64,000 nucleotides of DNA from Lytechinus pictus (Eukaryota). Position 1 is the first letter of the stretch. Each line of letters opens with the position of its first letter. The position numbers and the translations under genes were made by a program. The DNA is taken from the NCBI RefSeq assembly GCF_037042905.1, contig NC_087251.1:5520001-5584000 (forward strand), in the 5' to 3' direction. This document shows positions 19,401 through 63,020 of this stretch, one piece after another. Below the pieces are notes generated by a model. It was given only the letters and a program-made list of their open reading frames with translations. It had not been told where the DNA came from and ran no database searches.

Positions 19401-21363
19401 GATGACATGTGACCAAGGGTACTCACAGCAGATGTAAGATATACTGACGTTCTTAGCATTGAATGAAGAAGGATGCCAGATACCATTGCGTTGGTAGATG
19501 TCTTGCGTCGCGTCTTCACCTTCAGGGAACCGAAGCATCATCTGATGAAGAAGGAAAACATTATGGTAAATCTATGTAATAAATCTATGTTACACAGGCA
19601 GTTTGCTTAAAAAAAACAATTCATTTATCTACGCTGGTTCATCACAACACTGATATCACAGTTGTATAAACGACCACATCTACGAAATTTGTCTACACAT
19701 CCTCACGAATAAGACAGCATGACTCGCGTCCTTCAAAACTGAAAAAGATGAAATATTTCAGAAAGTTTGTAGTTTGTTTGTTCCATTACTCACCATACTC
19801 TCGTCCATCGTCCACGGGAGAAAAGTAAGAGTGCATTCCTGGATATCGAAAGGAAAGAAACGAACATCGACCTTACAGGTTGTGGTGATAACGGCAGGGA
19901 AGTACCAGTTGACGGTTCCATCTGATGTGGCCGTTGCGTAGGTACTCGGAGAACTTATGAAATCTCGATCCACACTGCTTGGAAAGGGGGAAGCAAAGGA
20001 ATGGTTTGGGGGTGATGACGGCAAAGGAAAAGGCAAAATATTTTGATGAGGTAAATATTATGTGAAAGCTCTGGTTATAAGAAGCAAAAATAAAGTGGAA
20101 GAGGGAATACTCTTTCTCTATTATTCATCTTTTAATTTATGTATGTGCTTGTTGTGTTTTGTCTCGGCTAACTCTTAATTTATCCAGAATTCTTTTCAGG
20201 AATTTGAACATTGGATAGATTATGACCTGTTTTTTTCCTGCGTTCTTCGAGATGTTCCTATCTTGAGCTTTGAAATTGGTAAATCTTCACATTCCCATGT
20301 ACTCAAAACCTATTTTCTTCTTCTTACGACAAGGGATTTCCAATTTCCTTTTGTGGGTGGGATGCTAACGGAGCTTTACAGAATTGGTCTGGCAAAAGTT
20401 ATGTGAGATCTTTTGGGGTCTGATCATATCAGTCTAAAGAGTGGGGGATGCAGACTAACACATATATTGTTCTCTGAGAAAGATTTTTTGTTTTGTTTTA
20501 GTTAGGGGGGGGGTCCGTGGCTTTTGGAGTCTAAATTTGTATTTCTTTTTAAAGGGGCCAGACATGGCGAAAAACAGTGACGAATTTATATATATATATA
20601 AATGTATACATTTATATATGTATATATATATATAAATCAAAGAGTTCTGCGTCGGCGGCATGATGTAGAAACAAAAGAAGACTTAATAGAAACGCCGTGA
20701 GGAGACATAATTTTACAAATTTTCGGTCATAGACCTTCTTCAGGGATGATTTTATTATTCAAAACAGGTTGCATCGATTGGTGATGATACCAACGCGCAA
20801 TAAATACAATGCGCAACAACATAACGCGACAGGTGCATTGTTAGAAGATATTGTGACGTAATGAGTAAAGTCCAGGCAACTGTTATGATGTAGAGTCAAA
20901 ACGGCAAAAGAGTCTATTGATTCATCGGTATAAGAAAGAAAACTTCACTTGGTTTCAGGCATTGGGAATGCGCGGAAAGACACATTCATTCCGTGGGGGG
21001 CGAGGGTCCCGAGACTGTAGATCAGGGGTGGTATTCTGAAAACGTTCTTATCTTTGTTCTTATCTTTTATCTTATCTCATTGAGATAAGAAGACGCTAAA
21101 ATCATTGCAAATCGGTATTCTGAAAATCTTCTTAACGCGTTCTTATCTCTGTAAGGACTGCCTCCTTCTTATCTTCAACACGCCCATTTTTAGGATATTA
21201 CCAATCAAAATGCGCTTTATATTGTCAGTTTAACCAATAGAAGCGTTCCTTATGTCAAGAGAATATCATGGGCACTGCGCGTACACTTTTTCTGGCGCAT
21301 TGCGCGAAATAGGCATTTTACGCAATTACTGATTATTATTTCGAGACACGTGCACAATAAGGA

Positions 21364-21447
<84 letters not shown>

Positions 21448-24400
21448 AAAAAAGGGAGGGAGGGAGGGAGGGAGGGAGGGAGGGAGGGAGGGAGGGAGGG
21501 AGGAAGGAAGGAAGGAAGGAAGTAAAGAAAAAAAAGTAAATAAAGCAGGTACGAATAAAGAATAAAACAGGAAGAAAGAAAGTAAGTAGGTAAGAAGACA
21601 GAAAAGGGTCAGAATGAAGCAGAAAAAAACATGAAAGGAACAAAGCAGAAAATAAAAGAGTAAACGAAAGAAAGCAAGCAAAAAGAACTTAAATGACGAA
21701 AAGGAAAGAAAGAAATTTAAGTAAAAAAACGAAAAAGGACAAAAAAAATTAAAAGGATAAAATGAAGGAATAAAGAACTGAAAAAACAGAAAAATCGAGT
21801 GAAAGAAAAAAAGAAAGAGAAAAAGAAGGAATAAAAAATGTAAAAGGTGAAGGAAGAGAGAAAAAAGGAAAATGAAACAATGAAAGAGAAATTAAAGCAA
21901 AAATAAAGACTAAAGAAAGAAATCGAAAGAAAGGTTAATTCAAAGAAAGAAAGAAAAAAGAACGAAAAGGGAAAATAAGAAAGGAAGAAAGATGAAGAAT
22001 AAATGAAACAAAGTAAAATAAGAATAAGGAACAGATTAAAAAATTCAAAAGAATAAAGCAATATATATAAATGAAGAATGATAGAAAGGAAGATAGACAG
22101 ATAGAAAGGAAGAAAAAGTGAAAATAGATAAAGAAAGACAAAAGGATTTTAAAAAAGGTGAAAAACAAAATAAAGGGTGGATGAAATAAAGGATGGAAAG
22201 AATACATGTTATTACCAGTGGCCATCTTTTTTGAGCAAGAAAGAACGCGAACATCGTGAGATGTGATAACCCTCTAGCTATCTTAAATATTGTCATAAAT
22301 ATCGTGAAAGATAAGAAAGAGAAAAGATAAGAACGTTTTCAGAATACCACTTATCTTCATTTTGTTCTTATCTTTTTAGCGCACTTTTGTATTATGCGCG
22401 AGTAATACATTTACGCGCTCAGCATAGGATGTTTAGCAAGATAAGAAAAAGATAAGAACAAAAGATAAGAAAAAGATAAGAACGTTTTCAGAATACCAAT
22501 TTGAGATCGTGACGTAGATAAGAACAAAATTAAGATAAGAACGTTTTCAGAATACCGCCCCAGCTTTTCTTCTTTGAGTTTGCGATCCGTCTCACGGTCG
22601 CAAGAGATGGCAACGCATACCTGTATATCGTTGATGGAATGTCCAGGTTGGTTGAAATGCGTTGCTACTGGCAGGCCAGGTGCGTTAAGTCGGATCGAAC
22701 GCAGATGCTCTGTTACTCTGTCTGCCAGACGTCGTTTGGTCTCCCCGATGTAAAGCTTAGTGCAGCGAGAGCATCGTATAGCATAGACGACGTTTCTGGT
22801 GGTGCACTTGAAGGAGGCCTTGACGCGCCAAGTTCTTCTGGGTCATTGGATGACATCTCCCCTCATGACGTAGGGACGGGTATTGCATCTCGGCCTGCCT
22901 GACTAGTCGGCAATTTGGAACGAACGAGATGGTCACACAGAGAACGGTCTTTCCTATATGCCAAAAGTACGGGGTTATCTTCAAAGATCTCCTTGCAAGA
23001 AGGAGATGACAGGAGATGACAGGAACAGCTTGGCGTTGTTTTTGATAGATCTTGTAATGAGTGCAGACCTGGGATGATAAGTCATCACTAGTGGAACTCG
23101 ACGACTCTTGTTGTTGTTTATCTTCCCAGTCAAAGCTTCGTCCTGCGAGATCAAACTAGACATTTGAATGGAGTGTTGAATGAGCTCCTCAGGGTAGCCT
23201 CTCTTCACGAAGAAATCACCCATCTCGGCAGCCCGTTGTTTAAAACGAGCATCATCGCTGCAGATTCTATGCAGCCTGGTCATCTGGGAGTAGGGGATCG
23301 CCTTCTTACAAGCCGCTGGATGGGATGAGTCATATTTCAAGTAGGAGTGAGAAGAAGTAGGTTTGTAGAAGACATCGGTAGAAAGACCTAAATCTTTGAT
23401 AGAGATGGAGATGTCCAGGAAGTCCACACTGATGCTGGAGATACAATGCGTGAACTTAAGAGATGGATGGTAGTTGTTAGCATATGCGATGAAATCTTGA
23501 AGATCCTCCTCTGGGCCGGTGCTTATTCCAAGATAGTCATCTATGTATCGCTTAAACAAGACATGTTTAGGCCCATGATATGATTGCAGCATCTGTTCCT
23601 CCACGAACCCAACAAAAAGCATAAGGGCCCATTTTTGTTCCCATAGCCACACCTTTATGTTTTTTGTAGTAGCGTCCATCAAATTCGAAAGCTCACAAAC
23701 GGAGAACTAGTTCAGCCAACCTTAGAAGGGTTTCCACACTCGGGGCATCATCGGGGGCATTGCGTTCCAAGAAGTAGCGGAGAGCCCTCAAACCGTCGTC
23801 TATGGGTATGTTAGTATAAAGAGATGAAATATCCATCGTGAAGAGGAGATGCTTTCCTTTTTCATCTAGAGTAACATCCCTTATGAGGCGAACAGCGTCA
23901 GAGGAGTCTTTCACGTACGTAGGAAGCTGAGTGACAAGAGGGGCTAGAATACTGTCCAAGTACTGACTGACGAGTTCAGTGGGGCAATTACACAATCGGT
24001 CTTCCAGGTGTGTTAGCTTTATGTATCTTAGGTAGTAAGTAAAAAGTAGAGCAACGTGGATTATCTTGAATGAGATTAGATGCATTCTTGGGCAGGTCGT
24101 CATTTTGTATCAACTCTTGTACTGTATCCTTGACCATGGCATGGTGCTCAGGAGTGGGAACAGTTTCGACTGGTTCATAGAATTCAGGATCAGACAATTG
24201 GCGTTCGCCCTAATGAATGTAGAGGTCACGTCTCCATACCACAATGGCTCCACCCTTGTCAGCTGGTTTGATGATATAATCCTTGTTATTACGTAAGGAT
24301 TTGATGGTCTCACGATCAGATCGGGAAATGTTATGACTAACTTTTTTGTCAGCATTGAGAATGTCAGTCATGTCAGATCTGCACTTCGAGATGAAACTGT

Positions 24401-62241: not shown

Positions 62242-62981
62242 CTTGATAAAATAACAAATCAAACTAAATCAAATTGAAACTATTTTACCATGGTGTGGGG
62301 GTGTGGGTGCGTGTGTATGTTAGGGTTTGTGGGAGAGAGTGTATGTGTTTATGTACTTATTTAAATATTTAATTGGTCAATTGGTCTACAAGACGAAGGG
62401 GGATATATTAGGGACGATGGAAAAGGTGTCCTTGCATGGAGGGGGAAAATCATGCCAACTTTGAGGGGTTTTATGTTTTGTTTGTTTGTACAAAGGTACA
62501 GTGGTATACAATTTGATATGTTATATCCATTGATGATTTTATGATTTATTGTATATTCAAATTCAAATTTATTTATTTCACTTCCATCAAACAAAAACAA
62601 ATTGTATACCATATATAAACATAAATATTTGTATCCGTTGCAAAAAAAAATATATATATAATTTGCTGTCTTCAAGAAAAAGAAAAAAATATTTTAAAAA
62701 TATTTATTTTTTGAGGATATTGGCTCGCAGACCAATGGAGATATGAATATTTGCTTAATAATTCTCCTAATGCATGTGTTTATGTATTGAAAGAAAGAAA
62801 AAAAAATTGGAATCTCATCATTTCATCGTGAAATCAGGAGAGGTATGTATCGCCTAGCTTATCCATCAGGTCAGAATATTTTTATGTAACTCACTTAATA
62901 GCTTTTTGGCAAAAAGAAGCTGCTGAAAACTGCTTATCTAATAAAAGAGAGCCAATGGAGTAAATTAGAAAGTCAAAAGCG

Positions 62982-63020
62982 GCCTAAGCTTTCGATCCTA
63001 GCAGAATCTTCGTCGGAGGC
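62982..63020 (-). ncRNA. Minimal type I hammerhead motif (U4 changed to C), from another PLE family
   Basis: Minus strand: gcct CCGACGA a gattct-gct-aggatc GAAAGCT T aggc; stem I gcct/aggc, palindromic AGCT stem III. Confidence 0.7.

Follow-up and report, generated by a model that had tools for sequence, protein, structure and literature searches.

Why should five motifs of a self-cleaving ribozyme lie on the sense strand in and around two receptor genes, each seemingly damaged in its own way? The question is raised by a 64,000-nucleotide (nt) stretch of the genome of the sea urchin Lytechinus pictus (RefSeq assembly GCF_037042905.1, contig NC_087251.1, positions 5,520,001 to 5,584,000 of the forward strand), which we call the window and in whose own coordinates positions are given. 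A preliminary description had noted minimal hammerhead ribozyme (min-HHR) motifs in or near introns of nicotinic acetylcholine receptor (nAChR)-like genes, and had proposed that selection removes self-cleavage from host introns or that residual cleavage by hammerhead dimers modulates receptor expression. We find that the five motifs are very probably minimal type I hammerheads near the 3′ end, in the pseudo-long terminal repeat (pseudo-LTR), of Penelope-like elements (PLEs), surviving in four families of decayed copies. Their defects are accounted for by age and, at one site, by the family consensus, and the decay looks neutral. Neither selection against intronic self-cleavage nor receptor regulation is supported.

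Five minimal hammerheads on one strand

Reading the minus strand confirmed all five motifs, at 20743, 25265, 25576, 37791 and 63016; the positions first reported (20710, 25232, 25538, 37754 and 62982) are the low-coordinate ends of the same motifs. We refer to them as m1 to m5, with core coordinates running from C3 to H17 on the minus strand.

20709-20751, minus strand: m1 (family 1), core 20743-20717, in the downstream pseudo-LTR of an intronic PLE; core identical to the family consensus
25231-25273, minus strand: m2 (family 1), core 25265-25239, in the upstream pseudo-LTR
25536-25584, minus strand: m3 (family 3), core 25576-25544
37753-37797, minus strand: m4 (family 4, an old one), core 37791-37759; with its inverted partner it makes up a hairpin-forming head-to-head pair
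37805-37836, plus strand: inverted partner of m4, beginning at U4 and lacking C3 and the 5′ strand of helix I; AAUU palindrome intact
62904-63031, minus strand: 5′-truncated 3′ end of a family 5 element, 128 nt, containing m5 (core 63016-62986)

At each site the layout runs helix I, CUGANGA, one extra base, helix II, GAA, a 4-base palindrome, U17 and the returning strand of helix I; position H17 is U in all five copies. We scanned the window with a descriptor comprising a 5-nt helix I, CUGANGA, one unpaired nucleotide, a 4-base-pair helix II with a loop of 3-12 nt, GAA, A-NN-U with a palindromic NN, and an H17 that is not G, allowing at most two defects. The scan matched exactly these five sites, all on the minus strand, with no match on the plus strand. 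When the window was shuffled 60 times with dinucleotides preserved, the mean was 0.25 matches per window over both strands and the maximum 2, so the five motifs exceed chance expectation. A variant descriptor in which helix II directly follows A9 was dropped; it missed all five motifs, and its sole match, at plus-strand 28979, lacks both helix I and the palindrome.

Standard structure searches gave no hammerhead. An Rfam search of the window returned none at the gathering score and none among 45 matches at E values up to 10, as expected because the motifs lack a helix III of their own, though this remains a negative result. For the same reason, we expected that single-strand folding would not return the hammerhead as the minimum free energy (MFE) structure of any of the five segments, as indeed it did not, and the folds are unused as evidence here, save for the hairpin at m4.

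Fifteen copies from the four families align readily, and all 15 carry a single base between A9 and G10.1. The pairing scheme holds for 84.8% of cells, compared with 69.4% in shuffles (0 of 500 reached the observed value) and 19-48% when partners are slid, and 8 of the 11 counted pairs have changed on both sides between families. Helix II is paired in 95% of cells, with 3 of its 4 pairs changed on both sides; its closing pair 10.1-11.1, as in known min-HHRs, is G-C in 13 copies and G-U in 2. Helix I, for which the type I form calls for 4-6 base pairs, has its three inner pairs formed in 14-15 of the 15 copies and 4 of 5 pairs changed on both sides. The palindrome, without a helix III loop, is AGCU in family 5 and AAUU in the other three families; pair 15.2-16.2 is AU in 9 copies, GC in 4 and broken in 2. 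This covariation support is modest, because only four lineages contribute and the structure was read from these same sequences.

The conserved core (C3 U4 G5 A6 N7 G8 A9 and G12 A13 A14 A15.1) is complete in the commonest genomic form of families 1 and 3. In family 4 each position is canonical in most aligned copies and no single copy has them all, and the family 5 consensus is canonical at every position except one, where it carries C4. Within the window, m1, m3 and m4 keep the conserved core, and m2 lacks G12. The earlier estimate of at least four families thus stands, with four sequence families (1, 3, 4 and 5) represented.

Such motifs abound elsewhere in the genome. A generic min-HHR pattern (CTGANGANG, 7-20 bases, CGAAANNTH) matched 2401 places (1206/1195 on the two strands), compared with 149 for the reversed control. 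Judged by eye, the listed matches fall into ten families or more, whose helix II arms are self-complementary and whose palindromes read AAUU, AGCU or ACGU.

A composite Penelope-like insertion in a receptor intron

The window contains two Cys-loop receptor genes, here gene A and gene B, both on the minus strand (Pfam Neur_chan_LBD and Neur_chan_memb). Motifs m1, m2 and m3 share one 7-kb intron of gene A (26995-19980). In this intron, two 189-nt direct repeats on the minus strand (25394-25206 and 20872-20684) are 96% identical and lie 4522 nt apart. Open reading frame (ORF) pieces between them match the GIY-YIG endonuclease domain (E 1.6e-4; 22.3 bits, just below the cut-off of 22.6) and the reverse transcriptase (RT) domain RVT_1 (E 0.0065). 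Two full-length homologues of the RT piece (P0021, 909 aa; P0023, 896 aa; 38-48% identity) carry RVT_1 followed by a C-terminal GIY-YIG domain, both above the Pfam cut-offs, and therefore have the architecture of an endonuclease-bearing (EN+) PLE. The two repeats contain m2 and m1, which are therefore the pair of pseudo-LTR hammerheads belonging to a single insertion.

The third intronic motif belongs to a neighbour. A truncated family 3 copy lies directly upstream of the PLE with a (TA)n tract in between, and both ends of the composite abut (TA)n. The copy carrying m3 is 97.7% identical to another genomic copy (L014).

25206-25394, minus strand: pseudo-LTR at the upstream end of the intronic PLE, 189 nt long and 96% identical to its direct repeat at 20684-20872
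20598-20988, minus strand: 3′ terminal region of the intronic PLE, comprising the downstream pseudo-LTR (20684-20872) and a tail; this segment is common to dispersed genomic copies
22414-24740, minus strand: broken PLE ORF, with an RT part (22984-24109) and a GIY-YIG part (22414-22842) separated by frame breaks and stops
25483-25865, minus strand: 5′-truncated family 3 copy carrying m3 and ending in (TA)n (25395-25482)
25891-25986, plus strand: inverted fragment of a family 3 3′ end, head-to-head with the truncated copy; no hammerhead

The 3′ part of the intronic PLE also holds a long microsatellite of the (GAAA)n/(GGGA)n type, flanked by inverted repeats of 41-49 nt that are 82-86% complementary (21025-22561). 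This structure looks like a nested insertion.

In every family we observed recurrent PLE traits, namely 5′ truncation (with truncated copies noted for families 1, 3 and 5), head-to-head pairs arranged minus then plus, and (TA)n ends, all on record for PLEs (PMC4209133, PMC8557442). Together with the pseudo-LTR position and the RT and GIY-YIG remnants, they bear out the Penelope-type identity proposed in the preliminary description.

From the literature, a hammerhead of an active element, having no helix III of its own, would pair with a second copy through the palindromic tetranucleotide, and the paired hammerheads would cut tandem or read-through PLE transcripts to unit length. In the window, the intron has received one 4.7-kb PLE with two pseudo-LTR hammerheads, along with the adjoining truncated copy of a second family, in a (TA)n tract; the space between the receptor genes holds one ancient head-to-head pair, and the region upstream of gene B one truncated copy of 128 nt. 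Deviations at four of the sites are private substitutions, of a kind found at the same rate in copies genome-wide, and the deviation at m5 is the consensus of a young family of ~1800 copies. We infer that the window copies are inert passengers of receptor pre-mRNA.

An old pair between the genes and a truncated copy upstream of gene B

The remaining two motifs map upstream of the known exons. Motif m4 is found between the receptor genes, with 6.3 kb separating it from the most 5′ exon mapped for gene A, and m5 precedes the first coding exon mapped for gene B by ~750 nt; m5 may belong to intron 1 or to the 5′ flank of that gene. An intronic position is shown for m1-m3, all in a single intron.

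The exact core of m4 is unique in the genome, and its surroundings match ~20 places at 74-85% identity. In an alignment of m4 with four relatives and its local partner, CUGAAGA, GAA, AAUU and U17 are each kept by most copies and all together by none, and all five relatives examined have core or helix defects of their own. Since the relatives mostly keep the canonical positions while bearing their own defects, the G at 16.1 of m4 is a private change in an old family. The m4 segment folds as a hairpin (MFE -31.8 kcal/mol) that buries both core strands. Together with the plus-strand segment 37805-37836 it forms a PLE head-to-head junction, with a partial hammerhead on the antisense strand.

Motif m5 belongs to family 5. 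The motif of this family has a GIY-YIG ORF upstream in all three loci tested (22.8-23.4 bits), and this endonuclease is 43% identical to that of the window PLE. One family 5 locus has a PLE-like N-terminal ORF downstream, and in L130, a stretch from another part of the genome, the hammerhead of this family has a truncated upstream copy on one side and the 5′ end of a full-length copy on the other. The core of m5, CCGACGA, with C at position 4, is the consensus core of the family: the exact 31-mer with CCGACGA occurs in 1362 copies (693/669), against 23 (13/10) with CUGACGA. The rare U4 copies may well be secondary, because C4-G5 is a CpG. This C4 family is the largest min-HHR family of the genome; for comparison, the canonical-core pattern gave its 2401 matches over all families.

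Could some or all of the motifs nonetheless be chance look-alikes? The two sites outside the intron invite the question most, m4 as a perfect hairpin with its core strands buried and its exact core found once, and m5 with its non-canonical core; the lack of any Rfam hammerhead match points the same way. We consider this very improbable. Shuffled windows gave 0.25 matches where five were observed. The m4 hairpin is the usual PLE head-to-head junction, and its diverged relatives mostly keep each core feature, though none keeps all of them. Family 5, for its part, has the PLE endonuclease ORF upstream and every other min-HHR feature.

Age and family consensus probably account for the defects

Four of the five sites depart from their families by private changes. 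In m1, helix I has lost two pairs to substitutions in its 3′ strand (20715 and 20712), and the core is intact. In m2 there are three changes, G12>A (25246), U>A at 16.2 (25241) and C>T in helix I next to C3 (25266). A single private C>G in helix II (10.3) marks m3, whose exact core was found nowhere else in the genome, and m4 carries U16.1>G. All the defects listed in the preliminary description are present; the helix II damage in m3 is one mismatch and not several, and the change at 25266 in m2 had gone unlisted.

We asked how these defects compare with those of other copies. Counting matches at up to three mismatches, for which the reversed-pattern control was 0 in each family, we found 63 for family 1 (33+/30-), 144 for family 3 (76/68) and 1846 for family 5 (930/916). 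Of the 63 family 1 matches to the core pattern, 31 were exact, 19 had a single mismatch, 11 had two and 2 had three; among the 19, an invariant position was struck in 11. The mutation-rate comparisons were made against genomic copies of unlabelled genic context (sense-intronic, antisense or intergenic).

For an unbiased sample of family 1, we retrieved copies through a 31-nt flank. This matched 94 places, of which 84 were fetched, leaving out 10 of the 13 copies that form two arrays on one contig. After 35 were dropped (43-nt hammerhead truncated or unalignable) and the window copy (L059) was set aside, 48 remained. The consensus was kept by 25 of them; 23 had at least one change, 10 at least two and 6 at least three, and an invariant core position was changed in 10 of the 48. 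Private substitutions numbered 32 in 2064 hammerhead sites, 63 in 3221 upstream sites and 9 in 882 downstream sites. Over the 25 copies with good upstream coverage, 18 rare substitution events fell in the 43-nt hammerhead and 40 in the ~100 nt of upstream flank. Substitution density in the family 1 motif is thus the same as in its flanks.

Family 3 behaves similarly. Its commonest form, with a perfect GACG/CGUC helix II, made up 68 of the 100 rows listed from the 144 matches, and by our reading 7 of the 12 listed copies that are one change (outside N7) away from it are struck at invariant core positions.

Two side observations concern these counts. The dinucleotide C11.1-G12 is a CpG in every family, as are C4-G5 and C7-G8 in family 5, and G12 has changed repeatedly in copies unrelated to one another, to A in m2 and three listed family 3 copies and to T in two family 1 copies. 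Such a CpG hot spot within the core could by itself inflate apparent core damage. The two arrays mentioned above lie on contig C16 (3372073-3397208 and 4071695-4102272), where 13 places on one strand, 3.3-6 kb apart, carry a segment of the family 1 3′ flank with the same three mismatches. The three of these 13 copies that were fetched showed no alignable hammerhead upstream, and the arrays were excluded from the counts.

Had host selection removed self-cleavage from sense-strand hammerheads in the receptor introns, the defects would be adaptive inactivations. Several points favour such a history or limit the case for neutral decay. The two pseudo-LTRs differ at seven positions (25298, 25281, 25266, 25246, 25241, 25237 and 25234), five of which fall in the 43-nt hammerhead of the 189-nt repeat (binomial P = 0.008); targeted inactivation would be expected to produce such clustering, though the test is post hoc and concerns one locus. 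Each of the three intronic copies has at least one defect, and all five motifs passing the descriptor lie on the receptor sense strand. The mutation baseline was drawn from copies of unlabelled genic context, and the RNA read evidence presented below is limited to family 5. A 2026 preprint reports that hammerhead-bearing retrozymes are relatively depleted from Xenopus introns (10.64898/2026.07.22.740005).

We nevertheless judge selection at these introns unlikely. The window pair (5 hammerhead versus 3 upstream changes) does not stand clearly apart from the 25-copy baseline (18 versus 40; Fisher one-sided P = 0.09), where rare changes had built up equally in hammerhead and flank, and 3 of those 25 copies are at least as hammerhead-skewed as m2. 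Family 1 copies of unlabelled context are similarly defective (23 of 48 with at least one change, 10 of 48 in the invariant core). The core of m1 is intact, and m3 bears its single mismatch in a copy still nearly identical to its genomic counterpart. The U4>C of m5 is the family 5 consensus. The three intronic motifs represent one composite insertion, and the shared strand of all five has no statistical weight, because at most three insertion events are involved, one of them with a plus-strand partner. A selectable cost is itself doubtful, because a lone min-HHR showed no detectable cleavage in vitro and dimers had low activity in the assays reported in PMC4209133.

The proposal that selection removes self-cleavage from host introns is therefore not borne out at this locus. 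The preliminary description had itself named two outcomes that would speak against it. One, a consensus already carrying the variant, was found for m5 in the preponderance of C4 over U4; the other, equal mutation of other copies, was found as far as the data allow (families 1, 3 and 4, in copies of unlabelled genic context). As a general rule, a preferential disabling of hammerheads that land on the sense strand of host introns also seems improbable to us; if it were true across families, PLE min-HHRs would cleave in vivo often enough to cost the host. The result shows that the structure and age of a single transposon insertion can fully account for a group of damaged ribozyme motifs in a gene, and that one locus is not enough to read selection from.

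RNA reads and cleavage by dimers

We examined three ribosomal RNA-depleted RNA runs from the same species on the 10-kb stretch L130, which holds a family 1 copy and the family 5 pseudo-LTR joined to a full-length copy. No RNA run was listed as matching window positions 19151-29150. The family 1 copy was covered at a depth of 0-1.5, too shallow to show cleavage. The family 5 copy was covered on both strands, at mean depths of ~60-74 and 12-50 in the two mate directions, with ~470-500 reads at 9062. No pile of read beginnings or ends appeared in or next to the family 5 motif in any of the three runs (predicted new 5′ end at 9059; threshold one fifth of local depth). In each run, 280-310 reads fit up to 9069 or 9071 and then continue into other flanks, with a median of 52-72 unmatched nucleotides in reads of 151 nt. 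Given these long unmatched tails, the reads cross the predicted cleavage site. The bulk of the family 5 RNA thus comes from dispersed copies that are read through without being cut. Cleavage at a low level could still occur, because the threshold was one fifth of local depth. The uncut RNA fits the inactivity of lone min-HHRs and the weak activity of dimers in vitro (PMC4209133).

These data bear on the idea that residual cleavage by hammerhead dimers, for example between m3 and m2, which lie 311 nt apart in the same transcript, lowers or tunes receptor mRNA. The family consensuses of m2 and m3 share the AAUU palindrome, and both motifs lie on the same pre-mRNA strand. However, G12 and the palindrome are gone from m2, helix II is mismatched in m3, even intact copies have shown low activity as dimers (PMC4209133), and the reads, which covered copies outside the window, showed no end pile for family 5. 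We regard tuning of the receptor in this way as extremely improbable, and this second proposal of the preliminary description is likewise unsupported.

The largest PLE family of the genome has amplified with a C4 core, and its RNA has no cleavage signature; efficient hammerhead cleavage may thus be dispensable for PLE spread. This young family of ~1800 copies amounts to a natural experiment on whether PLE mobility needs self-cleavage, a question left open in the accounts of PMC4209133 and PMC8557442.

Elsewhere on the same stretch (L130:1337-2004), a repeat unrelated to PLEs was covered by RNA on one strand at very high depth (335-474 for the bin 1671-2004 across the three runs). The reads there are consistent in their variant letters, with joints leading from 2009 or 2030 to 7479.

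Relation to known hammerheads and Penelope-like elements

Amniote genomes contain conserved intronic hammerheads (Rfam HH9 and HH10) that lie on the sense strand of introns, are single-copy and conserved, and fold as monomers. The window motifs differ from them in being multi-copy transposon debris that matches no Rfam hammerhead model.

The closest counterparts are the min-HHRs of metazoan PLEs (Cervera and de la Pena 2014, PMC4209133), described there in PLE pseudo-LTRs with an extra base, as opposite-strand pairs and mostly as solo truncated copies. Like those, the present motifs are type I hammerheads without their own helix III, with a palindromic 15.2-16.2 and a short helix I. Both groups have one unpaired base between A9 and G10.1, a G10.1-C11.1 pair and a site in both flanking repeats of an element encoding RT and GIY-YIG. 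Both also occur as many solo truncated copies, as opposite-strand pairs tens to hundreds of bases apart, and as many families per genome. They differ in two respects. The window families have AAUU or AGCU palindromes, whereas the two sea urchin (Strongylocentrotus purpuratus) families given in the supplement of PMC4209133 have C-G at 15.2-16.2. The largest family here has C4, which the CUGANGA descriptor of that study is unable to find; the C4 family is also absent from the one supplement file of that study that was searched. Four sea urchin PLE hammerhead families are thus added to a class already recorded in that phylum.

The intronic element also resembles canonical C-terminal EN+ PLEs as characterized by Craig et al. 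2021 (PMC8557442). Shared traits are an RT followed by a C-terminal GIY-YIG domain, partial-tandem pseudo-LTRs, a 5′ end bearing an inverted 5′-truncated copy, a tail confined to one end and a (TA)n target. Among the canonical clades, the element may belong to Penelope/Poseidon, Neptune, Nematis or Hydra.

Animal non-LTR retrozymes (PMC7229834; 10.64898/2026.07.22.740005) similarly carry type I hammerheads related to those of PLE pseudo-LTRs. Retrozymes are short tandem repeats giving rise to circular RNAs, whereas the window has no tandem array of hammerhead units; m3 and m2 lie close together, but they belong to different families and have (TA)n between them. The retrozyme preprint, with its relative depletion from Xenopus introns, is the nearest printed version of the idea that selection acts on intronic hammerheads.

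A natural core variant of a viroid hammerhead provides a parallel for family 5. There, U4C is described as reducing activity considerably in vitro and yet permitting infectivity (Perreault et al. 2011, PMC3088659). The core position and the base are the same as in family 5. The viroid hammerhead has full helices and tertiary contacts, whereas C4 here is the consensus of a retrotransposon min-HHR family of ~1800 copies.

The receptor genes and other features of the window

The exons of both receptor genes are 94-100% identical to Lytechinus nAChR-like proteins, and their Pfam domains and exon maps substantiate, for both genes, the earlier statement that the minus strand is the receptor sense strand.

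31502-31440 (weak), 29124-28951, 27850-27788, 27127-26996, 19979-19791, 19541-19185, 17570-17229 and 13442-13146, minus strand: exons of gene A
26996-27127, minus strand: exon of gene A that bounds the intron holding m1-m3 on its upstream side (aa 79-122 of P0002)
19791-19979, minus strand: exon of gene A that bounds the same intron on its downstream side (aa 121-183 of P0002; Neur_chan_LBD)
62155-62006, 59657-59613, 58363-58253, 56880-56680, 56133-55777, 55158-54994 and 54427-54107, minus strand: exons of gene B
62006-62155, minus strand: gene B, first coding exon on the map (aa 1-50 of P0024; 94% identical)

Neither tblastn with P0024, P0026 and P0027 nor a scan of 62170-64000 for signal-peptide-like ORFs located the signal-peptide exon (exon 1) of gene B.

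Three further features lie apart from the hammerheads. Between the exon at 29124-28951 and the putative first exon of gene A, positions 29660-31142 hold arrays of palindromic tandem units of 12 to 72 nt, rich in CGTCG and AATTT, which give sub-threshold matches to Rfam 'miRNA' (microRNA) models. A 928-nt inverted repeat (40188-41115 and 42073-43000) is 99% complementary, with 957 nt between its arms; the right arm reaches the edge of the searched region and may be longer, and the spacer contains repeated ORF-like units. This repeat is possibly a foldback-type element. Finally, an open frame of 89 aa on the plus strand (1447-1713) matches the Prokineticin domain (E 1.7e-7; 31.9 bits, cut-off 21.6).

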